Assembly: GCA_963666975.2 (NCBI GenBank)
Contig: CAXVYR010000004.1
Span: 608,001-672,000 of the forward strand
Reading direction: 5' to 3'
Origin: Terriglobia bacterium
GTDB lineage: Bacteria > Acidobacteriota > Terriglobia > 2-12-FULL-54-10
Length of the DNA: 64,000 nt
Below, piece by piece: positions 22,715-59,143 of this stretch. A program made the position numbers and the translations under genes. Position 1 is the stretch's first letter. Each line of letters opens with the position of its first letter. The notes under the pieces are model-generated. The model did not search any database. It was not told the DNA's origin and saw only the letters and a program-made list of their open reading frames with translations.

Positions 22715-22719
22715 GCAAG

Positions 22720-23931: not shown

Positions 23932-23976
23932 CCTGGCGGTTGTCTCTTGGTTCGTGGACGTTTCAGCCAGCAAGCA

Positions 23977-24138: not shown

Positions 24139-24222
24139 CAGGCTGGAAAAATATTTGTATCTAAGTTAACATTATAATTTGATCTATCTAAAGATCATAT
24201 CCCCTGTCAAGGCGGGTTAAAG

Positions 24223-28548: not shown

Positions 28549-28728
28549 TGGAGACGACCCCCTTAGTTTCGCTAAAGTTGCTAGTTTTGAAGTCGATGGT
28601 TTGGCCGCGGCGGCGCGGACCACCGTTCATTTGCATACCGATATCTTATCCTGTAACACGACTCCCCCGGAATGACCAAATTCGGACAACCTGCATGGCA
28701 ATCCGTTCCGGACGGCAATAGAGAGGAT

Positions 28729-38381: not shown

Positions 38382-38630
38382 ATGCACAATAAGCTGGAGT
38401 TCATTGATCCGCCGGAATTGGGTAAGCATCCCGGCTACAGTAATGGAATCAAGACAAAATCGGCCAGTCTGCTCTTCGTAGCTGGTCAAGTGGCTTGGGA
38501 TGAAGCCAACAAGATTGTCAGTTCCGAGTTTGTTGGGCAATTTGACCAGGCGTTGTCCAACGTACTTACGGTGGTACAGCAGGCGGGTGGCAAGCCGGAG
38601 GACATTGTCCGCTTGACGATTTATGTGCTG
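38382..38630 (+). pseudogene. RidA/YjgF-family protein, 3' truncated
   Basis: PGYSNGI, LFVAGQVAW, QALSNVLTVV.QAGG..EDIVRLTIYV, then runs into the convergent monooxygenase fragment. Confidence 0.75.
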
Positions 38631-39247
38631 GCCTGCTCGCATTCCACGATACAGGTGCCGGTGTGGCTGTCGAATGGATAGCAGTGCGCCTGGAACAATC
38701 CGTGCTCGTTCTCACAAAACAGGAACGTAAAGGCGTCAAACACCTTATCGGTTCCGAGCCAGATGAACTTGGCGTTTTCTACCGTCACACTCGGCTGGAA
38801 GATGGACTCGTAGGTCTTCCGCACAATGCTGTTGACACCATCGGCGGCGATGATCAGATCATAGTCGCAGAATTCCGACAGGTCGCTCACCTCAACCCCA
38901 AACTTCATCCGGACGCCCGCTTCGCGGCAGTGCTTCTGCAAGATGTTGAGCAGCAGTTTCCGCGAGATGCCGGCGAAGACGTGGCCTCCAGAACGGATGG
39001 TGTGATCGTGGTATTGCACGTCAATGGCATCCCACCTGACGAAGTGTTTCATGATGTCCTGGTAGGTCTCCGAATCAACCTCCTGGAAAGTAGCCAGCGT
39101 CCGTTCGGAAAAAACCACTCCCCAGCCGTAGGTCGCATCGGGCGGATTGCGCTCCAGGAGTGTGATATCGTGGGTTGGGTCCGCCTTCTTCAGCAGAAAT
39201 CCGCTGTATAATCCTCCCGGTCCTCCCCCGATGATGAGAATCTTCAC
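38621..39247 (-). pseudogene. N-terminal fragment of a salicyloyl-/anthraniloyl-CoA monooxygenase-like FAD enzyme
   Basis: IGGGPGGLY, ERNPPDATYGWGVVFS, ADGVNS, FIWLGT, AHCYPFD..TCIVEC; truncated at 208 aa. Confidence 0.75.
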
Positions 39248-39292
39248 GGCATGCGTCTCCCAAACTCTCCAGATGCGTGATGCGTATTCCCC

Positions 39293-39870
39293 CTAGCCAA
39301 CGGCCTCGGCTAGGCGGGCGAGTTGAGTGATGTTGCCCACAGTGGGGAACAAAAGCAGTTCGTCGCAACCTGCTTCTTGATAGCCTTGGATGAACTCGGC
39401 AACGGCTTGCGGGGTAGTGAGCAGGCTGGCGGTGATTCTATCGGCGAACGGTCCTGCGAAAAAATAGTAGTCCTTCATGTAACGGATACCTGCCTCCACC
39501 GCATCTTCGCCGAGCGCATAGTAACCCATTCCCCACAGTAGCAGCTTATCCGGGCGTCCCGCATCGAACCAGGCGGCTCGAGCTTTTTCAGCGGCGCGGG
39601 CGAAAACCCGTGGTGGTCCGCCCCCGTGCAGGTAGCCATTCGCGTAGCGGGCCATGCGGGCAAAAACCGGCTCGCTCGTCCCGCCTACCAGCAGTTCCGG
39701 GCCGCCGGGACGGGCCGGCTTGGGCCCCAAGGTATCCTCCTCCCAGTACGAGCGCAGGGCGCCCAGTTGCTCCGACAGCCGCCTGCCCCGAGATCGGTAC
39801 TCGACTCCCGCCACCTTGTAGTCGGCCTCCCGAGCCCCCACGGCCATGCCCAAGACCAGCCGGATAGTTA
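39293..39870 (-). pseudogene. LLM-class flavin-dependent oxidoreductase, 5' truncated
   Basis: RLVLGMAVGAREADY, GPKP..PGGPELLVGG, AGCDELLL; similarity starts at a MITE end at 39871. Confidence 0.7.
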
Positions 39871-39900
39871 GGTGCTTCCGCCATCCAGTGTTGTTAGGCT
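39871..39900. mobile_element. Terminal repeat of the GGTGCTTCCGCAATC MITE family
   Basis: ggtgcttccgccatccagtgttgttag matches the reverse complement of the right end of 50254-50419. Confidence 0.6.
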
Positions 39901-40411
39901 GCGAGAGACATTCGCTTATTGCTGGCAGCAACTGAGATTGTGGAGGAAACGAACACCAATATGAACTTTTCCCAACAGCGGGAATTCCTTTTTCGATACC
40001 TCTCCAATCATCGTAAGACCCCTTTTGGCATGTACTCAGCATGCTTAATTGTTGGAGGTTGTGCGTTTTCGCCGTTGCCGGATCGAAAGGAAATCATTTC
40101 TGCGCGGCCACCACTGGAGCCCAAGTCAAGACACTGCTCAGCCACTACCGAGGGCTAGGCCTGGCGGAACAAACTGAAGAGAATTTAATTGAGGTCCGCG
40201 AATTCTGCTATTCGCTCTCTTTTGTTCCTGGTGGGCCGCAACAGCAATGCAAGAACTCCCCCAAGCCTGATATTCCCAATTATCACTATATTACCACTCG
40301 GCGATCCGTGACTATTTTCCGAGTTTGTTACCAACGTGTTTAGGGATTATGGTGGAATTACTTCTCGGATGGACTCCCTGAAAAAATGAGGGAAGCCCAC
40401 CAGAATAAAGC

Positions 40412-40439
40412 TTGACAACCAGATTAGGAAAAGCATAGT
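40412..40439 (+). promoter_or_regulatory. Putative sigma70 promoter of the TonB receptor-amidohydrolase cluster
   Basis: TTGACA-N16-CATAGT about 115 bp upstream of the ATG. Confidence 0.45.
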
Positions 40440-40553
40440 GTTAACCACATATTGTGGACGTTTTACAAGATAATTCAAACTGCATCGTTCCTGAAGGCAA
40501 GGGAGAAAGCACTTGTCAGCCGAGCGATCCGTAACCGCAAACAGGAGGAAGTT

Positions 40554-43500
40554 ATGTCAGTGAGAAGGCTTTGGTCGGTGGTATTGGTGTGTGCGTTTTT
40601 CATCGGTGGAATCACTTGGGCTCAGGTGACCACTGGGACGATCTCGGGAACCGTAACCGACTCTACCGGAGCGGTGATTCCCGGAGCCACCATCACATTG
40701 AGGAACGTGGAGACGGGGATTACCCGCACAATCTCCACCGATGCGGCGGGCCGTTACACGGCTCAGCAGTTGGGGCTGGGCGGCTACGAAGTCACGGCGG
40801 GGTCGGCGGGCTTTCAAACTTTGATCCGGAGCGGCATTGAGATGACCGTGGGCCGGCAAGCGGTGTTGGATTTCGCCTTGCAAGTGGGAGCGGTGGCTGA
40901 GTCGGTGACGGTGACCGGGGAAGCTCCGTTGCTGGAGACCACCAACTCAACGGTGGCCGACCTGGTCACTGAGAAACAGATGCGGGATCTGCCGCTGAAC
41001 GGCCGCAGCTTTACGAATTTAGTGGCCATCCAGCCGGGTGTGGTTACAGATCTCGGGATTCCTCAGGGGGTATTCCAAGGTGGAGGCAGGATGTCACTGA
41101 ACGGTGCTCGCCCGCAGCAAAGCTTATACCTGCTGGACGGAACCGATATTGTGGCTCCCTATTCGAATGTGGCTCCTGTCAGCGTATTGTTCCAGGCGCT
41201 GGGAGTGGACACCATTCGGGAATTCTCCGTTTTGCAAAACAACTACGGAGCCCAGTATGGCCGCGCCGTCGGCGGCATCATGAGTGCCGTCACCCGTTCG
41301 GGCACCAACCAGATACACGGCAGCCTGTTTGAGTTTATGCGGAATGAGAAGCTGGACGCCAAGAACTTTTTTGATTCGGGCGAAGATTCGATCCCGCCCT
41401 TCAAGCGAAACCAGTTTGGGGGAACGATTGGGGGACCGATTGTGCAGGACAACACCTTTTTCTTCTTCTCCTACGAAGGTCTGCGGCAGGTCCTGGGAAC
41501 GACGGATTTCGGCACCGTATTCAGCGACGAGACGCGGCTAGGGGTGATCACAGGTTGTCCCCCAGGGCAGTCGAGTTGCACGGAAGAAGAGCGCATTGTG
41601 GCAGACACAGTAACAGTGAATCCTGACATCCAGCCTCTCATCGCCATCGCCCCGCGAGGTAACGGCCGCTATCTGAACGATGGAATTCAGGAATTCTTCG
41701 GCAGCCGGTCGCAGCGGGGCCGGGAGAGTTACTACATGTTCCGCATTGATCAGCGGATCAGCGACAACGACAGTTTGTTTGGCCGGTGGACGGGCGATCA
41801 CAGCAGCAAGGAACTTACCGATGCCCAGTTCTTCGCGGACGGTAGCGGCAGACACACCAGCACCGACGACGACGGTTTCTATGGCTTCTTGACAGTGGAA
41901 TGGACACGAATCCTGTCGCCTACGGTCATCAATATTGCGCGGGCAGGGTTTGCTCGAAACAACAACCGCCAGTGCATGTGCATTGATGGGACTGAGATTG
42001 GTGTGAACGAAATAAGTCACCCCGACTATCCCGTTGGCATGATCCCGGCGCAGTTGCAAATCATCCCCGGAATCCCGTTCGGAGGGCCGTGGGGGATGCC
42101 GGGTGTTGACATTCCTGGCGGGCACAATGGTATTGGCCGTCATACCGAAGGTGCGGACTTGGACGATCCCTTACATTACGTTGACAACACCTTCAGCTTT
42201 GCGAACTCTGTCCGCATTGCAAAGGCCGGGCACTCGGTGGACATCGGCGTGGACGTGAGGCGCTATCAAGAGAACGCGCTGCAATCGGTATGGGGCAAGG
42301 GAGGCACCAACTTCCGTTCCCCCATGCGGAACTTCTTGACCGCCGGCAGACCCGATCTTTGCCTGGAAGGGGGTGAGAGTTCCCGCAACTGCCGTGGGCT
42401 TAACACGCTCACTACGACAGGGATAACCGGACCGCCCGATTCATATCGCGGATTCAGGCAGACCTACTATGCCATGTTCTTTCAGGACGACTACCAAATC
42501 CGGCCGAACCTGACCTTGAACTTTGGGATCCGGTGGGAGTCAATTACGGGGCCTACAGAAGTCAACCAAAAGGTGGCGACCATCCTGGACGTATTGAACG
42601 ATGCGGATTGGACCCAGTTGGGGGACAAACCCTTGTTTGAGCTGCGCGATGGGTTGAAGGGTTTTTCTCCGCGATTCGGCTTTGCTTACAGCCCGGATCA
42701 AAGCACCTCCATCCGCGGTGGTTTTGGAACGTTCCGGGAGATGCCGTTGTTGTACTCGTACCAGTTAGCTGTTTTTTACCCCCCGTTTTCGGATCGGCTA
42801 CAGATACGGTCATTCCCACTTGATGCGTGGCCGAACCCCTTGGCTGGCATTGATCCGGCCGGAGCCCGGCGGCAGCCGCTGACGGTCAACCACGACTACA
42901 AATACCCGTACAGCATGCAATGGAACTTGCAGATTGAGCGGCAGATTGGGCAGACATGGGTAGCCAAGGCCGGCTATGTGGGGACCCGTGGGATCAGTCT
43001 CATATCGATCAATAACCTGCTTCAGCCAGCCCAAGAACTAGATGACCAGGGTGTGCCGTTCACACCTCGCAACGCACCTTCCCCCAATCCGGCCATCTTC
43101 TCGACTCGTAGTTACGGCAATTTTGGGGATTCCTGGTACAACGCGCTGCAACTGCGTCTCAAAAAGCGCTTCAGCCATGGAATAGATTTCAATTTTGGTT
43201 ATACCTGGTCGAAGAACATCGGCGATACGGGAATCGGCCTGAAGGGCGCAGAAACCCCGGGAGGAGACAGTCAGCAAGTCGGCTCCTTATGGGACTGGAA
43301 GATACTTGACAGGGGACTGGTCGCCCAGGACACTCGTCACAACTTCACGTTCAACTTCAGCTACGACGTCCCAATCGGGCCGGGGCGCTTCTTTGGCGGT
43401 AACATGGGCAGTGTCGCGAATACCATCCTCGGTGGCTGGCAGCTCAATAGTATCTTCAAAGCGCGATCAGGGTTACCGATGACCATTTCTGGAGGCGGCT

Positions 43501-43919
43501 ACAGCCGAAACAGCTACTGCCGCACCTGCGAAATTCGGCCCAATTTGGCTCCGGGGGGAGATAATAACCCGGTTAGGGATGAATGGGATCCGAATGCCCC
43601 GACTCCGGAATCTGCTTACTTTGATGTGTCGAATTTTGAGGTCGTGCCAGCCAGCTACTACGGCAACTTGGGGAAGCACACCTTGACCACACCCGGCTTG
43701 ACCACAGTGGATTTCTCCATCTTTAAAATGTTCGAACTGGGCGAGGCCAAGAACCTCCAGTTCCGAGCAGAGGTCTTCAATCTGCCGAATCACCCGAACT
43801 TTGCCCGGCCGAATGCTTCCGTCTTCCGCACCAATGGTTCTGTTAACCCGACGGTAGGGAAGATTACGCAAGCTCGCACCTCCCGGCAGATTCAGTTGGC
43901 GCTCAAGTTCGAGTTCTAA
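40554..43919 (+). CDS. TonB-dependent receptor, Oar-like, with an N-terminal carboxypeptidase-regulatory-like domain
   Basis: AGGAGG RBS; signal peptide; GTISGTVTDSTGAVIPGA, LPLNGR, TRSGTN..HGS, RNQFGG, C-terminal RQIQLALKFEF. Confidence 0.93.
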   Translation: MSVRRLWSVVLVCAFFIGGITWAQVTTGTISGTVTDSTGAVIPGATITLRNVETGITRTISTDAAGRYTAQQLGLGGYEVTAGSAGFQTLIRSGIEMTVGRQAVLDFALQVGAVAESVTVTGEAPLLETTNSTVADLVTEKQMRDLPLNGRSFTNLVAIQPGVVTDLGIPQGVFQGGGRMSLNGARPQQSLYLLDGTDIVAPYSNVAPVSVLFQALGVDTIREFSVLQNNYGAQYGRAVGGIMSAVTRSGTNQIHGSLFEFMRNEKLDAKNFFDSGEDSIPPFKRNQFGGTIGGPIVQDNTFFFFSYEGLRQVLGTTDFGTVFSDETRLGVITGCPPGQSSCTEEERIVADTVTVNPDIQPLIAIAPRGNGRYLNDGIQEFFGSRSQRGRESYYMFRIDQRISDNDSLFGRWTGDHSSKELTDAQFFADGSGRHTSTDDDGFYGFLTVEWTRILSPTVINIARAGFARNNNRQCMCIDGTEIGVNEISHPDYPVGMIPAQLQIIPGIPFGGPWGMPGVDIPGGHNGIGRHTEGADLDDPLHYVDNTFSFANSVRIAKAGHSVDIGVDVRRYQENALQSVWGKGGTNFRSPMRNFLTAGRPDLCLEGGESSRNCRGLNTLTTTGITGPPDSYRGFRQTYYAMFFQDDYQIRPNLTLNFGIRWESITGPTEVNQKVATILDVLNDADWTQLGDKPLFELRDGLKGFSPRFGFAYSPDQSTSIRGGFGTFREMPLLYSYQLAVFYPPFSDRLQIRSFPLDAWPNPLAGIDPAGARRQPLTVNHDYKYPYSMQWNLQIERQIGQTWVAKAGYVGTRGISLISINNLLQPAQELDDQGVPFTPRNAPSPNPAIFSTRSYGNFGDSWYNALQLRLKKRFSHGIDFNFGYTWSKNIGDTGIGLKGAETPGGDSQQVGSLWDWKILDRGLVAQDTRHNFTFNFSYDVPIGPGRFFGGNMGSVANTILGGWQLNSIFKARSGLPMTISGGGYSRNSYCRTCEIRPNLAPGGDNNPVRDEWDPNAPTPESAYFDVSNFEVVPASYYGNLGKHTLTTPGLTTVDFSIFKMFELGEAKNLQFRAEVFNLPNHPNFARPNASVFRTNGSVNPTVGKITQARTSRQIQLALKFEF

Positions 43920-44022
43920 AGCTAGGAGCAGTGACTTAAAGACAAGGTGCTTTCATGAAAGGCTAACCCCTTTGTGGAAGCACCTTTTTTATTTCAGCCT
44001 ATTGCTGAGGAGAGAAGCAATT

Positions 44023-45912
44023 ATGAGGAAAACGCTGTATGCAAGCTTGGCGATAGTTCTGGCTACTGGGTGGGGATGGGCTCAGCAAGAGAATGTTGCA
44101 GCGAAGTTAGGCTATCCCCAGATGATTGTTTACAACGGCAAGGTCGTGACCATGGACGACGCCTCGTTTGAATCACGAGTCGGGACCATTGTGCAGGCGA
44201 TGGCGATCCGGGACAGCAAGATTCTGGCGACGGGGAACAATGCAGAGATTCAGGCTCTGGCCGGGCCGCAGACGAAACAGATTGACCTCCAGGGCAGGAC
44301 GGTGCTGCCGAGCTTCATCATGACCCACGAACATCCCACCGACTGGGTCTTTATCGAGCCACGGGCTTTCCGGCACGTTCTGCCGGGGGACGATGTCATC
44401 GTCTCGCGATGGATGCCGAATGAGCCTCCCAAGCAACAGTTGGCGAAGCTGGAGCCGACGATGCGGGAGGCGGTCTCCAAGGCCAAGCCGGGACAGTGGA
44501 TTCGGGTGATCTTCAACTGGGGACCGGAATACGAATGGGCCACCGAGATGCAGCCGCTCTTTCGCAATTCCATCACCAAGGAATGGCTCGATGACATGGC
44601 CCCCAATAACCCGGTCACTGTGAAGAATGGATTCATTAATTCCGTATCCAATAGTAAAGCTGTCGAGGAATTGGCAAAGGTGCATGATCTGGAATCCTAC
44701 GATCCTGGCCCCGGCGGCGGAGGCCAAAAGGGCATTCGAGCCAGAGAAACCGGGCAATTGGGACGCCCGGTAGATCCCAATGCCATGCTCAGAGGAAAGC
44801 TCCCGGTGCTGGCTGAGCTATTGAAAGCGGAGTTGGAATTGTGGGGAAGCTACGGGATCACGACCTTTGGTTCCTCGCCCTACGCCTATCACAACCTCCA
44901 GGCCTTGGACTATTTGGACAAGCGAGGCGAGATGCCTGCCCGTTTTACCTGGGGTTATACGGGACCGACTTGGGACATAGAGACATTGCGGGTCCTGGCG
45001 GGCACATTAGGACATGGGACAGACCACCTGTGGCTTGTGGGAGCGTGGAAAGATACGGGCAGCGGTTGCATGAGCGTGCCGATGAGAGCGGAATGGGTCG
45101 AGCAAATGCGCGAGCAAGACGCGGGCTTTTCAGGGACGGGCCGCTGCAATTTCGCTCCCGGCACCGAGGGGAGAGAGATTCTGGAGCGGATCGTCGAAAG
45201 TGGCCTGCGGGTGGCCACGCTGCATACTGGCGGGGATAAGGATATCGACTACTTCATGGATGCGATCGAGCAGGCGAGCAAAAAAGCAGGTTTTACTCTA
45301 GACCAGATCCGCAGCAAGCGTCATGCCTTTGACCACAGTTCGGGTGCTCCCCGGCCAGATCAGATCCCCCGCATTAAGAACCTGGGGATGATGGTAAGCC
45401 AGATCAATACCATTTTGTGGGAGACGCACCGCGGGGCATCGATGACCGCCAAACAGTATGGGATTGAGTACACCGACTGGGTGGTGCCCCGGAAGAGTTT
45501 GACCGAGGCGGGGGTGATGACCACCTTCGAGATCGACCGGCCCTTGCCGCGCAAGGTGTTTTTCTTCATTACCAAAGGGATGAATCGGTACAACGACCGG
45601 GACCAGAGGGTCTATGGGCCGAACCAGAGGACGGACCGAATTGTCCAACTGAAGGCCCTGACGGTGTGGGGAGGCTATTACGTCTTGCGGGAAAACCTGT
45701 TGGGTACGCTGGAACCGGGTAAGTTTGCGGATTTCATCGTCCTGGATCGGGACTTTCTGACGGTCCCGGAGGCGGAGATCCCAGACACGACGGTGTTGAT
45801 GACGGTGGTGGGCGGCAAGACAGTGCATTTGGCTTCCCCGCTAGCGAGGGAGATTGGGATGCAACCAGTGGGCGCGAGCACCTGGACGGAACCGATCCCG
45901 GAGGGATGGTAA
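44023..45912 (+). CDS. Secreted YtcJ-like amidohydrolase (paralog AH3)
   Basis: Signal peptide GWA-Q; THEHPTDW, LHTGGD, FDH, EIDRP, GTLEPGKFAD. Confidence 0.85.
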   Translation: MRKTLYASLAIVLATGWGWAQQENVAAKLGYPQMIVYNGKVVTMDDASFESRVGTIVQAMAIRDSKILATGNNAEIQALAGPQTKQIDLQGRTVLPSFIMTHEHPTDWVFIEPRAFRHVLPGDDVIVSRWMPNEPPKQQLAKLEPTMREAVSKAKPGQWIRVIFNWGPEYEWATEMQPLFRNSITKEWLDDMAPNNPVTVKNGFINSVSNSKAVEELAKVHDLESYDPGPGGGGQKGIRARETGQLGRPVDPNAMLRGKLPVLAELLKAELELWGSYGITTFGSSPYAYHNLQALDYLDKRGEMPARFTWGYTGPTWDIETLRVLAGTLGHGTDHLWLVGAWKDTGSGCMSVPMRAEWVEQMREQDAGFSGTGRCNFAPGTEGREILERIVESGLRVATLHTGGDKDIDYFMDAIEQASKKAGFTLDQIRSKRHAFDHSSGAPRPDQIPRIKNLGMMVSQINTILWETHRGASMTAKQYGIEYTDWVVPRKSLTEAGVMTTFEIDRPLPRKVFFFITKGMNRYNDRDQRVYGPNQRTDRIVQLKALTVWGGYYVLRENLLGTLEPGKFADFIVLDRDFLTVPEAEIPDTTVLMTVVGGKTVHLASPLAREIGMQPVGASTWTEPIPEGW

Positions 45913-45936
45913 CCAAAGCCTTATTATTGAGGTTTA

Positions 45937-46015
45937 CATAATATAGTGACACTTAGATTCGCTGGGCGGCCTTCTGTAGGGCTTTTGAAGCCTGTAGAAA
46001 TGTCACTATATTATG
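45937..46015. repeat. 79-bp element bounded by a perfect 15-bp inverted repeat
   Basis: CATAATATAGTGACA ... TGTCACTATATTATG. Confidence 0.75.
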
Positions 46016-46106
46016 AAATGTTCAATAGGAGAAAATCGTCCTTACGGACCGTTAATCGATTGGAGCAACCGGTACATTTTTCTGCATTAACACAAGGGAG
46101 GAAACC

Positions 46107-48002
46107 ATGAGGAAAGCGGGCGCGATACTGTTGGCAGTTGTTTGGTGTAGTGTTTGGGGATGGTCCCAGAATGTTAGCGTACCGGCGGTGCTGGCGAACT
46201 ATCCACAAATGATCGTGTACAACGGAAAGATCGTAACCATGGACGATGAGTCCTTCGAGCCCCGCGTCGGGACGATCGTGCAGGCGATGGCGATCCGGGA
46301 CGGGAAGATCTTCAAGATGGGGAACGATGCGGAGATACGAGCCCTGGCGGGCCCGCAGACGAGGCAGATTGACTTGAAGGGGCGAGAGGTGCTGCCGGGT
46401 TTTATCATGACGCACGAGCACCCTGTCGACTGGATGTGGACGGAACCTTTGGCCTTCCGGCATGTCTTCCCGAATGACGAGGTAGCTGTCTCGCGATGGC
46501 TGCCTAACCTGCCGGCGAAGGAACAGTTTGCGCTGTTTGAGCCAACGATGCGGGAGGCACTGGCGAAGGCAAAACCGGGTCAGTGGATCCGGGTGATTCC
46601 CAACTGGGGCCCGGACAACGAGTGGGCTGAAGAATTTAGAGGGCAACTTGGTGATATCTGGGAAACATCCATCAAGAAAGAATACCTGGATATATTGGCG
46701 CCCAACAATCCGGTCTGCATCAGTAACGGCTTTACCAGCGCTTGCATGTCCAACACGAAGGCCATACAGGAATATCGTAGTGTGCATTCAGACATGGACG
46801 CTCAAGATGAGCAATCGGGAGTGTTAGGCCGCAAGATGCCGTCCGATGTCATACTGAAGGGGAAAGTGCCCCTTTTAGCTGAGCTTCTGAAGGCTGAACT
46901 GGAGTTGTGGGCTCGCTACGGGATCACGGCTTATGGCTCCGCGCCTTATGCTTACACGAACCTGCAAGCCCTGAATATTTTGGACCAAAGAGGCGATCTG
47001 CCGGCGCGGTATGCGTGGACATGGCATGCTGCAGTAGCTCCAAAAGGGTGGGATTTAGACACACTGCGACATATGTCTGGCATGCTGGGACAAGGGTCGG
47101 ACCACTTGTGGTTTATAGGCGCTTTCGGTTCTTCTGGCGGTTGCATGTCGATCTCGCCGAGACCCGAGTGGTCGGAGAAGTGGGGAGCCAATCTGCCTCG
47201 GTATTCCTATAGCCCGGAATGCCGTAACGCTCCCGGCACGCCTGGGTATGATAGGAATGTGGCGATCGCCGAGTCCGGCCTCCGGATCGCCACAATGCAT
47301 TCCTCAGGGGACAAAGGGATTGACTACGTCATGGACGCAATCGAAGAGGGTAGCAGACGAGCCGGGTTGACGCCGGAAGAGATTCGCTCCAAGCGGCATG
47401 CGTTTGATCATGCAGCGGGAGCTCCCCGACCGGGCCAGATTCCTCGCCTCAAGAACCTGGGGATGATGACGAGCATGCTCAATACGATTCTGTGGGAGAC
47501 CCACCGGGGGGCCTCGCAGGTTGCCAGGCAGTTCGGGGTGGAATACACGAACTGGGTCGTCCCCCGCAAGAGTGTGGCGGATGCCGGAATCATGAATACG
47601 TTTGAAATAGACCGGCCGCTGCCGCACAAAGTGTTTTTCTTTGTTGCAAAAGGGATGAACCGCTATAACGACCGGGATCAGCAAGTGTACGGACCGGGGG
47701 AGAGGACGGACCGGATTACGCAGTTGAAAGCGCTGACGACCTGGGGAGGATATTATTTGCTGCGGGAAAACCTGGTGGGGAGGCTGGCACAGGGCTCGTA
47801 TGCTGACTTCATTGTGCTGGACCGGGACTTTCTGACGATACCGGAGGCGGAGATACCACAGACGCAGGTGCTGATGACGGTGGTCGGCGGGAAGACGGTG
47901 CATCTAGGCAATGCCCTGGCCAGAGAGATTGGGATGCAGCCAGTGGGGCCGAGCACCTGGGCGGAGCCGATTCCGGAAGGATGGGAGCCGAAGGCTTATT
48001 GA
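46107..48002 (+). CDS. Secreted YtcJ-like amidohydrolase (paralog AH4)
   Basis: GGAGG RBS, signal peptide; THEHPVDW, MHSSGD, FDH, EIDRP. Confidence 0.85.
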   Translation: MRKAGAILLAVVWCSVWGWSQNVSVPAVLANYPQMIVYNGKIVTMDDESFEPRVGTIVQAMAIRDGKIFKMGNDAEIRALAGPQTRQIDLKGREVLPGFIMTHEHPVDWMWTEPLAFRHVFPNDEVAVSRWLPNLPAKEQFALFEPTMREALAKAKPGQWIRVIPNWGPDNEWAEEFRGQLGDIWETSIKKEYLDILAPNNPVCISNGFTSACMSNTKAIQEYRSVHSDMDAQDEQSGVLGRKMPSDVILKGKVPLLAELLKAELELWARYGITAYGSAPYAYTNLQALNILDQRGDLPARYAWTWHAAVAPKGWDLDTLRHMSGMLGQGSDHLWFIGAFGSSGGCMSISPRPEWSEKWGANLPRYSYSPECRNAPGTPGYDRNVAIAESGLRIATMHSSGDKGIDYVMDAIEEGSRRAGLTPEEIRSKRHAFDHAAGAPRPGQIPRLKNLGMMTSMLNTILWETHRGASQVARQFGVEYTNWVVPRKSVADAGIMNTFEIDRPLPHKVFFFVAKGMNRYNDRDQQVYGPGERTDRITQLKALTTWGGYYLLRENLVGRLAQGSYADFIVLDRDFLTIPEAEIPQTQVLMTVVGGKTVHLGNALAREIGMQPVGPSTWAEPIPEGWEPKAY

Positions 48003-48034
48003 GCCGAATGTTAGGTTTGCGGTAGGAGAGGAAG

Positions 48035-49948
48035 ATGAGAATAGGTCGGATAATGAGTGTGGTTTTGACTGTGGTGTTAGCCTCTGGCTTGGCCTGGTCT
48101 CAACAAGCGAATGTTGCAGCGAAGTTAGGCTATCCCCAGATGATCGTCTACAACGGCAAGGTCGTGACCATGGACGACGCCTCGTTTGAGTCGAAGGTAG
48201 GCACCATCGGGCAAGCGATGGCGGTGCGCGGGGACAAGGTATTGGCCGTCGGAACCAACTCGGAAATTCGCGCTCTGGCCGGGCCGCAAACCAAGCAAAT
48301 GGACTTAAAGGGCCGGACCGTGCTGCCCAGCTTCATCCTGACCCACGAACATCCCACCGACTGGGTCTTTATCGAGCCAAGGGCTTTCCGGCACGTTCTG
48401 CCGGGAGACGATGTCATCGTCTCCCGATGGATGCCGAACGAGCCTCCCAAGCAACAGTTGGCGAAGCTGGAGCCGACGATGCGGGAGGCGGTGTCCAAGG
48501 CCAAGCCGGGACAGTGGATTCGGGTGATCTTCAACTGGGGACCGGAATACGAATGGGCTACGGAGATGCAGCCGCTGTTTCGCAACTCCATCACCAAGGA
48601 ATGGCTCGATGACCTGGCCCCCAATAACCCGGTCACTGTGAAGAATGGATTCATTAATTCCATTGTCAACAGCAAAGCCATCGAGGAATATCGGAGTGTC
48701 CACGATGACGTCAGTTTTTACTCGACCGGGCGCCGGGGAGGCGGACGGATTCCGGAACGGGAGGCCCAGGCCGAGCGAACAGGGAACTTAGGCCGTCCCG
48801 TCGATCCGGATGCCATGCTCAAAGGGAAGCTCCCGGTGCTGGCCGAGCTGTTGAAAGCAGAGTTGGAGTTATGGGCAAGCTTCGGGATGACAACCTTCGG
48901 TTCCTCCCCCTATGCCTATCACAACCTCCAAGCCTTTCACCTTTTGGATCAGAAAGGCGAAATGCCAGCTCGCTTCGCTTGGGGTTATACGGGGCCTGCT
49001 TGGGACAAGGAGACATTGCGCGTCCTGGCAGGCACACTGGGACATGGGACGGATCACCTGTGGAATGTGGGGGTGTGGAGTGGCTCGGGCAGCGGTTGCA
49101 TGACCGTGCCGATGCGAGCGGAGTGGATCGAACAAATGCGCGAGCAAGGCGCGGACTTTGCAAGGTCGGGCCGGTGCAGTTTCGCTCCCGGTGCAGTTGG
49201 AAGAGAGATCATGGAAAGGATCATCGAAAGCGGCAATCGTATAGCCACGATGCACACGGGTGGAGACAAGGATATCGACTATTTCCTGGACGCGATTGAG
49301 CAGGCGAGCAAGAGAGCAGGCATTCCTCTGGACGAGGTCCGCGCCAAGCGCCATGCTTTTGACCACGGTTCGGGTGCTCCCCGGCCGGACCAGATCCCCC
49401 GCATTAAGAACCTGGGGATGATGGTGAGCCTGATCAACACCGTTTTGTGGGAGACGCACCGGGGGGCGTCGGTGACTGCCAAGCAGTATGGGATTGAGTA
49501 CACCGATTGGGTGGTGCCGCGGAAGAGTTTGACCGAGGCGGAGGTGATGACCGGCTTCGAGATCGACCGGCCTCTGCCGCACAAGGTGTTTTTCTTTATC
49601 ACCAAAGGGATGAATCGGTACAACGACCGGGACCAGAGAGTCTATGGGCCGAATCAGAAGACGGACCGGATCACCCAGTTGAAGGCGTTAACGGTGTGGG
49701 GAGGCTATTACGTCTTGCGGGAAAATCTGTTGGGTACGCTGGAGCCCGGTAAGTTTGCGGATTTCATCGTGCTGGACAAGGATTTTCTGACCGTCCCGGA
49801 GGATCAGATTCCAGGCATTCAAGTGCTGATGACCTCAGTGGGCGGCGAGGTGGTTCACCTGACTTCTTCGCTGGCCAGCGAGATCGGAATGCAGCCCGTG
49901 GGCGCTACCACCTGGAAGGAAGCGATCCCGGAAGGTTGGGAATACTAG
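48035..49948 (+). CDS. Secreted YtcJ-like amidohydrolase (paralog AH5)
   Basis: Signal peptide AWS-Q; THEHPTDW, MHTGGD, FDH, EIDRP. Confidence 0.85.
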   Translation: MRIGRIMSVVLTVVLASGLAWSQQANVAAKLGYPQMIVYNGKVVTMDDASFESKVGTIGQAMAVRGDKVLAVGTNSEIRALAGPQTKQMDLKGRTVLPSFILTHEHPTDWVFIEPRAFRHVLPGDDVIVSRWMPNEPPKQQLAKLEPTMREAVSKAKPGQWIRVIFNWGPEYEWATEMQPLFRNSITKEWLDDLAPNNPVTVKNGFINSIVNSKAIEEYRSVHDDVSFYSTGRRGGGRIPEREAQAERTGNLGRPVDPDAMLKGKLPVLAELLKAELELWASFGMTTFGSSPYAYHNLQAFHLLDQKGEMPARFAWGYTGPAWDKETLRVLAGTLGHGTDHLWNVGVWSGSGSGCMTVPMRAEWIEQMREQGADFARSGRCSFAPGAVGREIMERIIESGNRIATMHTGGDKDIDYFLDAIEQASKRAGIPLDEVRAKRHAFDHGSGAPRPDQIPRIKNLGMMVSLINTVLWETHRGASVTAKQYGIEYTDWVVPRKSLTEAEVMTGFEIDRPLPHKVFFFITKGMNRYNDRDQRVYGPNQKTDRITQLKALTVWGGYYVLRENLLGTLEPGKFADFIVLDKDFLTVPEDQIPGIQVLMTSVGGEVVHLTSSLASEIGMQPVGATTWKEAIPEGWEY

Positions 49949-50159
49949 AGCGTTTTCGCAAATGGTGTAAACCACAACGCGTTGTCATTCCGAGCGCAGC
50001 GAGGAATCTGCTTTTCGCCGGGTAAGGGCCAATCCCCTTGTACAAAAGCAGATCCTTCGCGGCGTTTACCCTGAGCAACGCCGAAGGGCTCAGGATGACA
50101 GCCAAAGAGGTTGCCTGGTTCCGATGGCGGAGCGGTCTACACCATTTGCGAAAACGGTA
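49948..50159. mobile_element. TA-flanked MITE (IS630-like ends) carrying REP-like palindromes
   Basis: TIR core CGTTTTCGCAAATGGTGTA (49951-49969) / TACACCATTTGCGAAAACG (50138-50156); TA on both sides. Confidence 0.75.
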
Positions 50160-50253
50160 TAAATCAAGAGACTTTTTCTTCGCGGGATGGGGAGGCGATG
50201 ATGAAACCCACTCTGTGCCTATTAGCCTTACTGTGTATAGTAGCGGCCGGCGT

Positions 50254-50419
50254 GGTGCTTCCGCAATCGACTGTTGGTGGGATCAGCATAACCTTATAAT
50301 GTTCAATATGTTGCTGGCAGAAATGGTCTTGGCAGTTCTGCCGTGTGGCAAATACAGGATAACCAAATTTGTTTGTTGGATATAGGGATGCGCTAACAAC
50401 ACAAGATTGCGGAAGCACC
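50254..50419. mobile_element. MITE with 15-bp TIRs GGTGCTTCCGCAATC
   Basis: Perfect TIR pair, non-coding interior; second copy at 58996-59143. Confidence 0.8.
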
Positions 50420-50459
50420 GAATAAATAGAATTGGTGTGAACTTTTGGACAAGCGGGTT

Positions 50460-53411
50460 TTATTTAAGCAAAGCCTGGTCCACCTGCACGCCCGAGGCAC
50501 CCAATGGAGTGGCACCCAATTCGAGAAGCAGATTCGCCGTAATCTCGCGCATCGCGCGCGGTTTCGCGTTAAAGGCATCCGCCAAACCCACTGTAAGGAT
50601 GTTCGACGTGATACTCAACGGCGTTTGGCCCCACTTATCCATCACGTCCATCTTGGCACCCCTGTCCACCAGAAACTGAATGATTGTATTCAATCCGCTG
50701 TATGCTGCGGCGTGCAGTGCGGTCTGGCCCACTTCGTTGGCCGCATTGACATCGGCGCCCAATTCCACAGCCAATTTGAAGGCTTCGAGAGCGCGCCTCT
50801 CCGCCGCCTCCGTGGAAGGTGTCCCAAACTCAGTTGCAGGTTGGGACGGCGGGTTGAGTTCATATTACGCCACTTCCTCCTTGTGAGAGGAAGCAGCGTT
50901 TGGACTTCGGCCGAGAATCGATGCCAAAGCCCAGAGATCGTGATAACCCATGATCTTCCGGAAATTCTTCTCGGTCAGCAGAAACGCTCCTGCCACCCAG
51001 CGCAACGTCATCTCGCCGTCGCGCCAGCGGCAAACATTGCCAGTCTTTTTCCGCACGCCCGACTGCGGGCTCTCGATGAGGTTCGTGGTTGCCAGGCAGC
51101 GGTGGAGGCTGGGAGGAACGTCGGCTCGATTGATCGTAAAGGTCTCCTCCAACCCTTCGCGCAAGCTGGCGGCTGCTGCCGGATGATCGCACTCGATCAT
51201 CCCAGCGAGCTTCTTTATGCGCACGATGCCTTCCTCGGCTTGGGGCAATCGCCAGGCGGCGCGCATCAGCGACCGCACCTGATTCGCCAGCATTTTGTCG
51301 CCCTTTGGTAACCGCTCAGCCACGTTGCGCAGCTTATGAGTACGGCAACGCTGCACCAGCTGATTGCTGCCGAATACTTCCTCGATCCCCGCGCGGAGCG
51401 CTTTGGCGCCGTCGATCACAAACAGATAGCGCTGATCCGTGCGCAGACCTTGCTGGCGCAGGCGGGTGAGAAGGTCTTTCACCGCAGCGGCGTTTTCGGT
51501 CGCGCCCAGTTGAATCCCCAGCACATGCTTGCGGCCCTCGCTGTCCACGCCCACGGCGCTGATGACGTGGTGGGAGCCGAACCGCATTCCGTCCAGGTAA
51601 ATCACCAGAATCTCGACCTCCTCCCAGCGCCGCGCCAACAGTTCTTCCAGCCGCCGCGCTCCTTGCTCGGCCGCTTCCCGGCTCACCTGAGACTTCGACA
51701 CCCCAGCGCTGTTGGCCATCTCCGGGATCACCTCGCGGTAGTTCCGCGTCGAAACCCCTTTCAACAGTGCCTCGAACATCTCCTCGCCCGTCTTCTCGCT
51801 TTTCCGCAGCGCTTCGTAGGCCGGCACCGCTTCTTCCCCTCCGCCCTTCCGGCGCAGCCGGGGCCGCTCCACCCGCAGCTGGCGATCGGCCAGTTTCACC
51901 CTCCCCAATTGCCGGCCATGCCAGCGCACCTCTCCGCTCGCCTTCCCGGGACTCTTTGGCCCCGCGATTTGCTCTGCGCTCATGCTCAGAATCGTTTCAA
52001 TCAAACCTCGCCCGGCCCGATCAATCACCTCATCCACCGCCAGACGCGCCTCCGTGATCAGATCCACCACCGGCAACAGCATCTGTCCGTTGGTTTGGCA
52101 AAACTTCTGGATGGTTTCTTCGGCTCCCTTGGAACCCAGTTCCAAAACGTGATATTTTCCCTTCATTCGGCGGTTCTCCTTCTATAGGATTTAGGCTTGG
52201 CCCGATTCTATTCGATTCGGGCCGAACCGCCGTTCAACCTTCAACTATGTATGGGACACCCTCCCTCCGTGTATATTCGATAGTTATTTGGATTTACGTC
52301 GTTATGCTCAGTCGCAGCGCCCCCTCCCGCCGCCAGAAGCAGCGATGTGGTATTGTCCTCCATTGCCAACAAAGGATCGGCGCCGCTGGTCGCCAGGACA
52401 CGCATGACGCCGGTGTTGTTGTTCATGGCTGCCAGCAAAAAAGGGGTTGCGCCAACTAGGACTATGCCTCCGATTGCAGGCACGTCCTTCCCGAGTCGAG
52501 CGTTCGGATTCGCTCCATGTGCCAGGAGCGCCTTCACCAATTCCTCCATGGTCCGGGAGGTGATGATTATAGCCCCTTGATATCTGCGGCCCAGGTTCTG
52601 CCCCGACGCCGCATAGTGTAGAGCAGTAAACCCTTTTCCGTCGACCGTCGCGTTCGGGTCCGCGCCTTTGTCCAGCAGAAATACGGAAAGCGCTTCGTGT
52701 CCGCTGGAGCTCGCCACCAGTAAGGCGCTCATGCCGTCCGGCGCGGCCTCATTCACATTCGCTCCCGTTGCCAGTAGTATCTGGGCAGAGTCCAGATCGC
52801 CCTGCTGGGCAGCAAACAGCAACGGGGAAAAACCGCCTTTCGAACGGGCATGAACATCCGCTCCGTGCTCGATCAACGGTCGCGCGACATCCGGGTGTTT
52901 TCTTGCCAAAGCCCACATTAGTGCCGTTTGCCCCCCCTGATTTTCTGCCGCGTTTGGGTCCGCTCCGTTAGCCAGCAGCGACTTCACCGCCTTCACGCTT
53001 CCGGTGTCCGCGGCCGCCATGAGCGGCGTTTCTCCTAACGGCAGGGCGGCGTTCGGGTTTGCCCCGGCGCTCAACAGCTTCTCGACCATGACAGCGTTCC
53101 CATTGCGGCAAGCTAGCCATAGAGGAGTGGCGCCATAGTCGTTCCTTGCATTCACGTTTGCGCCGGCATGAATTAGAAGTTCCGCCGTTTCCAGATCATC
53201 CAGGTGGACCGCCCATGCCAGTGCTGTCGCGCCATCCGCACCCGAGCGCATTTACATCGCTGTGGTGCTGTAGCAGGGAGCGGACGGCCTCCTTATCTCT
53301 CTTCTTAACCGAATCAATCAGCCGAAGATCGCTGCTGGCGGCAGCTAGGCTGGCGACTGAAAGCAGAGTTACTATACACCAGACACCAAAAAGCCTAATT
53401 TCAGCACCCAT
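50460..53411 (-). pseudogene. Secreted ankyrin-repeat protein, split by IS256 and frameshifted near 53245
   Basis: Signal peptide; repeated GxTAL/GADVNA ankyrin units; removing the IS and one TSD rejoins ...YTE-AAERRALEAFKLAVELGAD... Confidence 0.88.
50815..52263 (-). mobile_element. IS256-family element; transposase 50865-52166
   Basis: TIRs GAAGGTGTCCCA../GAGGGTGTCCCA.., 8-bp TSD CCTCCGTG; GVSTR, YLDG, IDG, QRC..HK, TTNLIES motifs. Confidence 0.95.
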
Positions 53412-53659
53412 CCTCGGTTTCTCCCTTCGCGGAATTGCTCTCTAAAAACCCGACAAGAAATTTTCGCAGGATCACAATTCGTTCAAATAAAGGCCACCCG
53501 TTTTTTAACAACGAGCTATTGACTGGGTGGAAAGATATCGAATTGGAGCCTGTACGGCTTACTTTGCCGGCGCATCAGCGCCACGCATTGCTATAATTGC
53601 AACCATCGCCCCAAATCTAATCCCACATGCGGAAAAGAAGCCAAGTCCTTCACCACCAT

Positions 53660-58935: not shown

Positions 58936-58995
58936 AGATACCCGCCTCCTGCCTTGAGTTGTCCAAGTGTACCAGATGAAAATTGCACTAGGCAA

Positions 58996-59143
58996 GGTGC
59001 TTCCGCAATCGACTGTTGGTGCGATCAGCATAACCCTATAATGTTCAATATGTTGCTGGAAGAAATGGCCTTAGTAGTTCTGAAGCGTGGCAAATATAGA
59101 ATCAGCCAATTTGTTGTTGGAGATAGGAATGCGCTAACAACAC
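58996..59143. mobile_element. Second, right-end-truncated copy of the GGTGCTTCCGCAATC MITE
   Basis: Aligns by eye over about 148 bp with the copy starting at 50254, same orientation. Confidence 0.8.

Follow-up and report, generated by a model that had tools for sequence, protein, structure and literature searches.

We analysed a window of 64,000 nucleotides from the 4.23-Mb genome of an uncultured Acidobacterium. An array of four intact genes was found on the forward strand: an Oar-type TonB-dependent transporter (1121 aa; positions 40554–43919), followed by three exported Amidohydro_3 enzymes, AH3 (629 aa, motif HEHPTDW; 44023–45912), AH4 (631 aa, HEHPVDW; 46107–48002) and AH5 (637 aa, HEHPTDW; 48035–49948). 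ORF and Pfam evidence confirmed the transporter and the three same-strand, signal-peptide genes of ~630 aa described in an earlier, sequence-only reading, and the assignments draw additionally on alignment for the transporter, trees for AH3 and AH5, and a structure model for AH4. The long ORF of the transporter spans 40452–43919, with a likely start at the ATG at 40554, preceded by the ribosome-binding site AGGAGG, and that of AH3 begins at 43972, with a likely ATG at 44023, preceded by GAGGAG. With the likely start codons, the gaps of 103, 194 and 32 bp given earlier were reproduced. A Pfam scan of 41 ORFs in the window found neither a glycoside hydrolase nor SusD, again as first reported.

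AH3, AH4 and AH5 matched PF07969 from end to end, with 90–133 bits against a cut-off of 29.7. AH3 shares 82% identity with AH5 and 66% with AH4; in the tree, AH3 groups with AH5 as its sister copy, and the branch of AH4 is a neighbouring one within the same 15-member subclade. The two alternating subtypes (PTDW and PVDW) proposed from the sequence were not upheld: all three enzymes belong to this one subclade, and the distinction rests on a single hypervariable residue, two positions past the HxH metal ligands, at which 12 different residues occur among the 87 full-length enzyme paralogues of the genome. The signal peptides held up, as the N-termini of AH3–AH5 are hydrophobic and end in AWAQ or AWSQ, and 81 of the 87 paralogues passed a crude heuristic for such peptides. 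A similarly crude search for a lipobox found none among the 87.

The structure model of AH4 was confident (pLDDT 91.8), and its nearest structures were the YtcJ-like proteins 3IGH and 3ICJ (Foldseek E 9e-24; Z 31.8, rmsd 3.8 Å over 463 aligned residues, 19% identity), followed by amidohydrolase-fold peptidases and deaminases (Z 24–27). The catalytic residues H103, H105, H398, H435 and D502 are retained in 87, 87, 86, 87 and 83 of the 87 paralogues, respectively. C346 and C372 occur together in 82 paralogues and are both missing in 4, a joint presence or absence that would be expected if an exported protein carried a disulfide between them. The lysine in the GVKLFVDG segment of 3ICJ, which we take to be a carbamylated metal bridge, aligns with Gly338; glycine is found here in 85 of 87 paralogues, and lysine in none of 105 full-length global representatives. 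This assignment follows the six-residue set given for YtcJ, cd01300 and PF07969 in the accessible text of a preprint (bioRxiv 10.64898/2026.04.05.716592). Judged by their residues, the enzymes are a YtcJ-like subfamily that keeps four histidines and one aspartate and is devoid of the carbamylated lysine. Database and literature searches found no characterised function for the clade, in keeping with the array having been put forward as a candidate undescribed system.

The transporter gave Pfam matches to CarboxypepD_reg (72 bits), Plug (30 bits) and, over its full length, OMP_b-brl_4 (597 bits). It comprises a signal peptide, the CarboxypepD_reg N-terminal extension, a TonB-box-like VTVTGE, a plug, a 22-strand-type barrel and a C-terminal Phe. 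VTVTGE lies between the extension and the plug and is kept across 11 aligned sequences (the transporter and 10 relatives), and the genome encodes five TonB_C matches and two ExbB matches. According to the accessible text on Oar of Myxococcus xanthus, the only Oar-type transporter to have been studied experimentally, it exports a protein and is not a nutrient importer (PMC6434023).

The promoter-like site noted earlier, a sigma-70-like candidate (TTGACA, 16 nt, CATAGT; 40412–40439, +), is the best in the region, with 10 of 12 consensus matches, but such sites occur at chance level (6 found against 5.5 expected). Contigs from RNA libraries that match the genome exactly start at 40463 or 40466 in all four runs of one study, and contig cover is zero over 39000–40202; together, these observations are a weak hint for a promoter at 40412–40439. 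A palindrome, CCACATATTGTGG (40445–40457), follows the −10 element and precedes the first base of the RNA contigs. The pattern CCACAnnnTGTGG has five matches genome-wide, of which only the one at 40445–40457 precedes a gene for a transporter or an amidohydrolase. Transporter sequence was present in the RNA libraries, with the span from 40463 to 43931 or 43941 covered exactly in 4/4 runs, and AH3–AH5 were covered in patches by exact contigs from four libraries.

Co-transcription of the array, as envisaged earlier, was not supported. A putative terminator- or attenuator-like hairpin with a U-run (43945–43994, +) begins 26 nt past the transporter stop codon; it was absent from the consensus-scan list because its loop is long. 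The fold of 43915–44022 has an energy of −33.9 kcal/mol (z −2.65), and 2 of 200 shuffled sequences were equally stable. Among the RNA contigs listed, none bridged the transporter–AH3 junction, and the 194-bp AH3–AH4 gap contains a promoter-like site (45985–46014, +; 9/12 matches, a consensus match only). A single operon is therefore not established. No riboswitch was found, and no operator-like motif common to the upstream regions of the 34 Oar-type transporters of the genome.

Directly 3′ of AH5 lies a short repeated palindromic element (49970–50110; 28 blastn HSPs in the genome), with high summed RNA-contig depth and loose ends on both sides. The array is bounded by a Mutator-family IS transposase (50865–52166, −), which Pfam identified along with genes on the same strand for an ankyrin-repeat protein (52241–53251), a DUF1552 protein (53660–55081) and a PSCyt/PSD protein (55012–55734 and 57274–59031). 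These three, spanning 52241–59031, are possible accessory genes of the system. The PSCyt/PSD gene is split by a further transposase (55880–56863, −). At other loci, an ankyrin/DUF1552/PSD trio was seen directly upstream of an AH homologue (L023), and PSD–DUF1552 upstream of a transporter and AH (L010). Elsewhere in the window, the tree identified AH2 (29235–31145, −; HEHPVDW) as the closest own-genome paralogue of AH4, with no adjoining transporter, and AH1 (26635–28623, −) as a distant paralogue, 34% identical to AH3 and followed by a DASS-family transporter gene (24917–26368). A multicopper oxidase, a ZIP transporter and a DtxR-like repressor are encoded beside AH1 and AH2 at 21668–24882. 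The C-terminal part of a sixth paralogue (63258–64000, −) runs off the window; the whole gene is G000:C4:671258-673141.

The 87 enzyme paralogues occupy 3.9% of the bases of the genome. Recurrent linkage between receptor and amidohydrolase was confirmed: an amidohydrolase gene is the immediate neighbour of 11 of the 34 transporters, whereas 2000 shuffles gave 1.45 such cases on average and never more than 6. With gaps of up to 1.5 kb, 38 enzymes and 16 transporters are clustered, with up to seven enzymes beside one transporter, while 49/87 enzymes and 18/34 transporters are unlinked to each other. The order of the adjacent pairs is not fixed, since the transporter is upstream in six and the enzyme in five. 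In 29 flanks of the clusters, we found no recurring partner gene among 128 ORFs, and no linked regulator or inner-membrane transporter. The gene-neighbourhood check extended the linkage to public data (24 of 67 loci, in 10 assemblies), and the enzyme expansion was seen in 13/13 other genomes of the family, with one-to-one orthologues across genera for many paralogues.

Such adjacency could arise with no functional coupling, if chance neighbours were copied by IS-mediated segmental duplication while the two families (87 and 34 members) expanded independently. The genome is plastic and IS-rich: the Mutator-family IS is present in 51 copies (at least 1400 bp, at least 99% identity) and a second type in 29 near-identical copies, one of these types lies in 8 of 32 cluster flanks, where 4.1 were expected (a count reached by 49 of 1000 random draws), and some enzyme genes are duplicated at 100% identity. 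By sequence comparison, members of the genus do not all share the array: a same-genus genome keeps only AH4 at the corresponding place, as a 92% identical orthologue, and has nothing closer to the transporter than a 48% identical match. Transporter and enzyme paralogues do not clearly appear to have co-diversified (Mantel r 0.197; 293 of 5000 permutations as high), and AH linkage shows no clustering on the transporter tree (10 changes where 11.5 were expected; 122 of 500 shuffles as low). Against this, all 11 adjacent pairs are same-strand, an ~8-fold excess over shuffles, and the pairing recurs in different public assemblies. It recurs also in another genus, where transporters 57–64% identical to that of the array precede same-subclade enzymes that are 60–75% identical (L049, L015, L009, L010 and G012:C76). 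Pairs that diverged across genera, set against IS copies of 99–100% identity, imply that the pairing is far older than the IS copies, and we consider the absence of coupling unlikely.

We favour, with middling confidence, TonB-driven import followed by periplasmic C–N hydrolysis, with the paralogues acting as a panel of specialists. The array would be a two-part module for scavenging nutrients, of which the genome would have about sixteen, and the modules probably serve to harvest nitrogen-containing organic compounds. The transporter, energised by the proton-motive force via TonB–ExbB–ExbD encoded elsewhere, would move scarce or bulky molecules of this kind across the outer membrane. AH3, AH4 and AH5, reaching the periplasm through Sec, would cut a C–N bond (amide, cyclic amide or amidine) with metal-activated water, and the products would be taken up by unlinked inner-membrane carriers. 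We infer a division of labour among the paralogues because many are old and separately conserved and differ at the hypervariable residue, which suggests a specificity panel rather than gene dosage. Overall, the sequence-only reading, which had proposed a utilisation locus for amide or other nitrogen-containing compounds, is partly supported.

Transport might instead run outwards, with the transporter moving the amidohydrolases encoded beside it out of the periplasm to the surface or medium, where they would act outside the cell. The accessible text on Oar describes a matching architecture (PF13620 extension, TonB-box plug and barrel) and a requirement for Oar and the Ton system in secretion of PopC from the periplasm (PMC6434023); the predicted signal peptides would bring the enzymes to the periplasm, and the Bilophila wadsworthia enzyme BwBSH1 is a precedent for a secreted Amidohydro_3 protein (bioRxiv 10.64898/2026.04.05.716592). 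However, PopC as described there is not an amidohydrolase, BwBSH adjoins a type II secretion system with no TonB-dependent transporter described, and folded ~68-kDa metalloproteins with a probable disulfide would hardly traverse a plugged barrel. As one transporter can have seven neighbouring enzymes and most enzymes have no transporter nearby, export appears quite improbable.

It is very improbable that AH3, AH4 and AH5 form an obligate hetero-oligomer of PTDW- and PVDW-type subunits. A PTDW-type gene is directly followed by a PVDW-type gene twice in the genome (AH3–AH4, and C3:798679-800589 then 800328-802553), and related arrays at L005 and L006 also mix both branches, but every copy has a full catalytic set, the AH4 orthologue in the same-genus genome has no AH3- or AH5-type neighbours, and single members of both branches are found elsewhere. 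Metallophore handling, in which the amidohydrolases would free metal from an imported chelate by opening amide bonds, is scarcely credible: import of metal chelates is a classic role of TonB-dependent transporters (PMC6434023, accessible text), and metal-homeostasis genes lie near some paralogues (such as 21668–24882; Nramp genes in 2/29 and a ferritin gene in 1/29 flanks), but these do not adjoin AH3–AH5, siderophore-associated genes are absent from the 29 flanks, neither a riboswitch nor an operator-like motif shared upstream of the 34 transporters was found, ~90 paralogues far exceed the need of any known metallophore system, and nothing in the analysis supports the chelate substrate suggested earlier.

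Among known systems, the import and periplasmic hydrolysis proposed for the array can be compared first with the YtcJ-like amidohydrolases (PF07969, COG1574, cd01300), whose Pyrococcus structures 3ICJ and 3IGH are of unknown function. The full-length PF07969 match is shared, and the HxH, two His and one Asp of 3ICJ align, but the array enzymes are ~150 residues longer and exported, with Gly338 in place of lysine. The peptidases Cc2672, Sgx9260b and Sgx9260c (3MTW, 3FEQ/3MKV and 3N2C), which cleave C-terminal or Xaa-Pro peptide bonds and are presumably dinuclear with a carbamylated Lys, have the same fold (Z 26–27 over ~350 residues); unlike the array enzymes they are ~400 aa long, belong to Amidohydro_1/COG1228 rather than PF07969, and are only 15–16% identical. 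By description in the accessible text, the Streptomyces epsilon-lysine acylases SmELA and SgELA are also YtcJ-like metal amidohydrolases; they hydrolyse N-acyl amino acids and have a listed His/His/His/His/Asp metal-binding pattern, but are actinobacterial and presented with no transporter linkage (PMC10699109). BwBSH1, likened in the same way, is a metal-dependent bile salt hydrolase that cuts an N-acyl-amino-acid-type amide and resembles the array enzymes in its Amidohydro_3 domain, Sec signal peptide and adjoining paralogue; it differs in being 945 aa long, with a further domain at the C-terminus and a dinuclear Zn site containing KCX373, and in coming from a gut organism (bioRxiv 10.64898/2026.04.05.716592). 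Oar is of the same subclass as the array transporter, but its cargo PopC is a subtilisin-like protease made with no signal peptide, and adjacency of popC to oar is not described in the accessible text (PMC6434023). The likeness to polysaccharide utilisation loci, and to the TonB-dependent carbohydrate utilisation (CUT) loci described in PMC5615132 as far as its accessible text goes, is confined to the logic. The array has no SusD-like gene, glycoside hydrolase, hybrid two-component or ECF regulator, or conserved inner-membrane transporter, its hydrolases are amidohydrolases and its transporter is of the Oar subclass; what is shared is that exported hydrolases are encoded in arrays that cluster with a gene for an outer-membrane TonB-dependent transporter, that a genome has many such loci and that the paralogues have diversified.

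We confirmed the arrangement that the sequence-only reading had proposed as an undescribed utilisation locus, a receptor followed by three co-oriented amidohydrolases: all four genes are intact and run in the same direction, with their start codons corrected. The Oar-type TonB-dependent transporter gene (40554-43919, +) is followed by the Amidohydro_3 genes AH3 (44023-45912), AH4 (46107-48002) and AH5 (48035-49948), with intervening gaps of 103, 194 and 32 bp. Further paralogues lie in the window at 26635-28623 and 29235-31145, with a partial one from 63258. A copy of a Mutator-family IS (50865-52166) bounds the array. The two ORFs immediately upstream, at 38621-40042 (-), look truncated and may be gene remnants; their luciferase-like monooxygenase match covers profile positions 99-245 of 314 only, and their FAD_binding_3 match positions 3-168 of 349 only.

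Across the 4.23 Mb genome, 101 ORFs matched AH4, 87 of which encode at least 550 aa, and 34 ORFs of at least 900 aa matched the transporter; the enzymes account for 3.9% of the genome and the transporters for 2.6%. Mixed clusters, with genes at most 1.5 kb apart, contained 38 of the 87 enzymes and 16 of the 34 transporters, and the largest of these grouped a transporter with seven enzymes, another transporter with five, and two transporters with four. Strict adjacency was counted on 4053 greedy non-overlapping ORFs. An enzyme was the very next gene for 11 of the 34 transporters, with all 11 pairs on the same strand, as against a mean of 1.45 and a maximum of 6 in 2000 shuffles; enzyme-enzyme adjacency was counted 27 times, where the shuffles averaged 1.86. 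The two families are physically linked far beyond chance. The order within the pairs was not fixed (6 one way, 5 the other way), and we found no further recurrent gene, regulator or inner-membrane carrier in 29 flanks (128 ORFs).

The pairing was also seen outside this genome. Of 67 public loci that encode an enzyme homologue, 24 had an Oar-type transporter in the flank; by a tally of record names these 24 are distributed over 10 of 31 assemblies, all 10 labelled acidobacterial. Transporters 57-64% identical to the one in the array (at loci L049, L015, L009 and L010) were each directly followed by enzymes of the AH3-5 subclade, and two transporter matches (60-62%) on contig C76 of the comparison genome G012 likewise had subclade enzymes directly 3'. 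A same-genus genome carries at this place only an orthologue of AH4 (92%), with no AH3/5-type neighbour and no transporter-matching ORF; its best transporter match anywhere was 48%. The gammaproteobacterial homologues (47-50%) had no Oar-type neighbour in a phmmer search with the transporter. Pfam scans of six gammaproteobacterial loci identified classical TonB-dependent receptors in two (L023 and L029) and ExbB/DUF3450 in one (L034), a proximity of TonB/ExbB genes that is suggestive only.

The most economical reading of this arrangement, which we consider to have about an even chance of being correct, is import followed by hydrolysis: the transporter would bring a substrate in, and a panel of specialised, exported paralogues would hydrolyse C-N bonds within the periplasm. 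Linkage by coincidence, through segmental duplication, is an improbable alternative. Several results speak against tight coupling. Besides the content of the same-genus genome, the variable gene order and the lack of a further recurrent gene, similarity between transporters within the genome was only weakly correlated with that between their neighbouring enzymes (Mantel r 0.197; 293 of 5000 permutations as high), and the amidohydrolase-linked transporters showed no clustering in the transporter tree (10 changes, with 11.5 expected). Two abundant insertion sequences were present in the genome, the Mutator-family IS with 51 copies of at least 1400 bp and at least 99% identity, and an IS3/IS481-like element with 29 near-identical copies; of 32 flanks, 8 contained one or the other, where 4.1 were expected and 49 of 1000 random draws were as high. 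Other transposases in the cluster flanks were of the DDE_Tnp_1_4, DUF772/DDE_Tnp_1 and IS200 types. A short palindromic repeat (GTCATTCCGAGC...GCTCAGGATGAC) at 49970-50110 gave 28 blastn HSPs in the genome; its summed RNA-contig depth was the highest, with loose ends on both sides, and it is therefore a dispersed, transcribed repeat.

The import reading calls for a panel of distinct enzymes, and the tree of the AH3-5 subclade showed many one-to-one orthologues across genera, which indicates that the paralogues are old and have been kept separately. Each of the 13 further genomes in the family contained homologues at E ≤1e-30 (9 to 114 first-look candidates), and 17 genomes representing 10 other families in the class contained none. 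In a phylum-wide draw of 300 others, a single genome had matches at E ≤1e-40, with 71 candidates. The closest public homologues came from records titled Terriglobia or Acidobacteria MAGs, and those of 47-50% identity from records titled Gammaproteobacteria. Globally the enzyme family is small, with 649 representatives (50%-identity clusters) at E ≤1e-30 of 1.84 billion. Two pairs of amidohydrolase proteins encoded on different contigs of the source genome were 100% identical (C3:880557-882392 with C4:773381-775216, and C3:308601-310439 with C4:577921-579759), which points either to segmental duplication in the very recent past or to duplication in the assembly.

The transporter is an outer-membrane protein of 1121 aa with a likely ATG start at 40554 preceded by AGGAGG, and carries a signal peptide and a C-terminal Phe. 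Pfam matches comprised an N-terminal PF13620 CarboxypepD_reg extension (72.1 bits, profile positions 1-82 of 82), a Plug (PF07715, 30.2 bits, cut-off 23.9), and a barrel matched by OMP_b-brl_4 (597.5 bits, positions 1-838 of 838) and PF00593 (31.3 bits). The Oar subclass of TonB-dependent transporters is defined (PMC6434023) by an extension-plug-barrel architecture that includes PF13620, and these profile matches indicate that the transporter has that architecture. A (V/I)TVTGEAP stretch, conserved at residues 117-125 in an 11-sequence alignment, lies between the extension and the plug and, by comparison with the TonB-box consensus, may represent the TonB box. The genome encodes a Ton system, with 5 TonB_C and 2 MotA_ExbB matches above cut-off and two co-located TonB-ExbB pairs. 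No NCBIfam model reached its cut-off for the transporter or any of six amidohydrolases.

The main rival with a real precedent is that the Oar-type transporter exports the enzymes, as for PopC, and we regard this as quite unlikely; were it true, it would provide a second example of TonB-dependent protein secretion. A crude test identified a signal-peptide-like N-terminus in 81 of the 87 paralogues, 5 of the other 6 show MKK and a hydrophobic stretch, and a lipobox was absent from all 87 N-termini. Complex prediction with mature AH4 (residues 22-631) and transporter residues 24-135, covering the N-terminal extension and TonB-box region, gave a score of 0.00 against a mark of 0.32, which is evidence neither way.

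As for the enzymes themselves, AH3, AH4 and AH5 matched PF07969 over its full length with 132.7, 90.1 and 113.9 bits (cut-off 29.7). Searching solved structures with the AH4 sequence gave partial matches only, at E 2e-8 or weaker. The structural model of AH4 is confident (pLDDT 91.8, pTM 0.91). The nearest solved structures to the model were the uncharacterised YtcJ-like hydrolases 3IGH and 3ICJ (Z 31.8, rmsd 3.8 A over 463/483 residues, 19% identity; Foldseek E 9e-24, TM 0.74 normalised to the target), whose (beta/alpha)8 barrel and flanking beta-sandwich are both present in the model. The next neighbours, at Z 24-27, were the amidohydrolase-fold peptidases 3FEQ, 3MTW and 2P9B, together with deaminases, imidazolonepropionase and triazine hydrolases. 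In the ESM Atlas the nearest clusters were unnamed acidobacterial Amidohydro_3 proteins, which gave no functional lead.

Profile alignment placed AH4 residues H103 and H105 (the HxH motif), H398 (strand 5), H435 (strand 6) and D502 (strand 8) on the metal and catalytic residues of 3ICJ, and these are kept in 87, 87, 86, 87 and 83 of the 87 paralogues, respectively. The four histidines are kept in all 105 full-length proteins among the best 150 global representatives. The lysine in the GVKLFVDG motif of 3ICJ, however, aligns to Gly338 of AH4, a position occupied by Gly in 85 of the 87 paralogues and by Lys in none, and by Gly in 91, Ser in 9, Ala in 5 and Lys in 0 of the 105 representatives. 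A preprint on metal-dependent bile salt hydrolases (bioRxiv 10.64898/2026.04.05.716592) gives YtcJ, cd01300 and PF07969 a set of six conserved metal residues, one of them a carbamylated lysine, which it describes as essential in the bile salt hydrolase BwBSH1. The enzymes belong to the Pfam family but constitute a distinct lysine-less subfamily, and from the lack of the carbamylated lysine we infer that the metal site is mononuclear or differently bridged. Cys346 and Cys372 are both present in 82 of the 87 paralogues and both absent in 4, as would be expected for a disulfide.

AH3 and AH5 are sister copies (82% identity, support 98-99), while AH4 (66% identical to AH3) branches with AH2, another paralogue in the window, and with a PVDW-type copy on another contig. 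The proposed division into alternating PTDW and PVDW subtypes was not supported: both versions of the HEHPTDW/HEHPVDW motif are present, but they differ at a hypervariable position, two residues past HxH, at which the 87 paralogues show 12 different amino acids. In two places in the genome a PTDW-type gene directly precedes one of PVDW type, and the same-genus genome has its AH4 orthologue by itself; that the three enzymes form an obligate heteromer seems to us very unlikely.

We then considered the genes around the array and its paralogues. A set of three genes encoding PSCyt/PSD, DUF1552 and ankyrin-repeat proteins lies 2.3 kb past AH5, at 52241-59031 (-). The PSCyt/PSD protein contains DUF1592/1588/1585/1587/1595 domains, and its gene is split in the window by an IS transposase (55880-56863). 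Five such trios are present in the genome. The trio is tightly packed directly upstream of an amidohydrolase homologue in a gammaproteobacterial-labelled MAG (L023:2373-9884), with a classical TonB receptor 1.6 kb beyond, and PSD-DUF1552 genes lie upstream of a transporter and an amidohydrolase at L010:341-9914. The function of these families is given as unknown in PMC5615132. The records of L023, L025 and L034 are titled Klebsiella pneumoniae MAGs. PSCyt/PSD, DUF1552 and ankyrin genes such as those of the L023 contig seem atypical for this species, and the label is presumably doubtful.

Proteins combining CarboxypepD_reg with a Vgb_lyase/SMP-30-like beta-propeller recur beside transporter-amidohydrolase clusters of the source genome (L080:1710-3275 and L094:2786-4888), and the same type adjoins a gammaproteobacterial homologue (L029:5993-7687); one of these proteins also contains a cytochrome c domain. 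Directly after the distant paralogue AH1 comes a gene for a DASS-family (Na_sulph_symp/CitMHS) transporter, the two together spanning 24917-28623 (-), and the sister paralogue of AH1 elsewhere in the genome has a DASS gene 3.7 kb away (region C4:2160071-2166961). Genes for a multicopper oxidase, a ZIP-like transporter and a DtxR-type repressor with a FeoA domain lie next to AH1 and AH2 (21668-24882), and among other cluster flanks (L079, L093 and L074) two contain Nramp genes and one a ferritin gene. Such metal-homeostasis genes could reflect the metal demand of some 90 exported metalloenzymes, or chance; metallophore processing, to which they might also be referred, is the least probable of the explanations weighed here.

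Transcription was assessed from RNA contigs of four metatranscriptome runs of one study, which can show neither RNA ends nor levels. Exact contigs extended from 40463 or 40466 to 43931 or 43941 over the transporter, and the 1.2 kb upstream (39000-40202) was uncovered in all four runs, which argues against the cover being simply contaminating DNA. Exact contigs also covered patches of AH3, AH4 and AH5, for example 46871-47565 and 49250-49668 in run X13. The transporter had deeper cover than the enzymes, although contig depth cannot rank genes. Among the RNA contigs listed, none bridged the gap between the transporter and AH3 (76 pieces fell outside the listing), and a strong hairpin with a U-run lies there at 43945-43994 (-33.9 kcal/mol, z -2.65). 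A second promoter-like site was found in the 194-bp gap between AH3 and AH4, and the 32-bp gap makes AH4 and AH5 the likeliest co-transcribed pair. The promoter-like site noticed upstream of the receptor (40412-40439) is present and scores best in the region, but the number of such sites, 6, is about that expected by chance (5.5). The predicted fold of the 5' leader (40446-40560) was no more stable than those of shuffled sequences (z +0.93), and the 350 bp upstream of the 34 transporters yielded no convincing shared motif, with an 8-mer word in at most 6 of 34. A search of 39900-50500 against known RNA families gave no riboswitch at E ≤1; the sole match, to a snoRNA (E 0.48; 17.8 bits, well under the gathering score of 39), was dismissed as chance. 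Two RNA runs labelled "sponge metagenome", which contain 6-9% of the sampled words, have no bearing on habitat.

Characterised relatives and structural neighbours suggest, by analogy, what a substrate might be: an N-acyl amino acid, a small peptide, a cyclic amide or an amidine. In waters and soils a large share of the organic nitrogen is amide-linked, and the routes by which abundant uncultured Acidobacteria gain access to this nitrogen are poorly known. We put forward, tentatively and as a proposal that may well prove wrong, that the modules serve for organic nitrogen as polysaccharide utilisation loci serve for polysaccharides. A few uncultured Terriglobia would then carry dozens of such "amide utilisation loci" in each genome, each combining an Oar-type importer with periplasmic enzymes of an unrecognised lysine-less, probably mononuclear YtcJ-like branch, and each of some 90 old, separately kept paralogues would be matched to its own amide- or amidine-linked compound in dissolved organic matter. 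The lineage would have specialised in turning over amide nitrogen, and its enzyme family would offer a rich and so far untapped supply of C-N hydrolases. Should the modules import and cleave distinct compounds, they would provide a testable genetic marker for organic-nitrogen scavenging and the first candidate class of nutrient cargo for Oar-type transporters, and would define some 650 clusters of sequences as a lysine-less YtcJ-like enzyme type.

In the literature searched, judged on titles and abstract openings, neither the transporter-amidohydrolase pairing nor the expansion was described. The characterised YtcJ-like enzymes found in print, namely BwBSH1 (bioRxiv 10.64898/2026.04.05.716592) and the epsilon-lysine acylases (PMC10699109), cleave N-acyl-amino-acid amides. 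The metallo-bile salt hydrolases are described in the preprint with a dinuclear KCX site and about 945 aa including a C-terminal domain, whereas the enzymes studied here have about 630 aa and no Lys at that position, and lack the bridging lysine, one defining feature of YtcJ-like enzymes. The reported absence of glycoside hydrolases and SusD was upheld, with no such family among the 41 window ORFs scanned; SusD was likewise absent from 128 flank ORFs of other clusters, and Pfam identified no carbohydrate-active enzyme at 40412-49948. A CBM9/DUF5916 protein is encoded 9 kb from the array on the opposite strand (59236-61563). The proteins belong to known superfamilies, and the module, while it fails the defining features of Sus-like loci, shares the known logic of TonB-linked utilisation loci.
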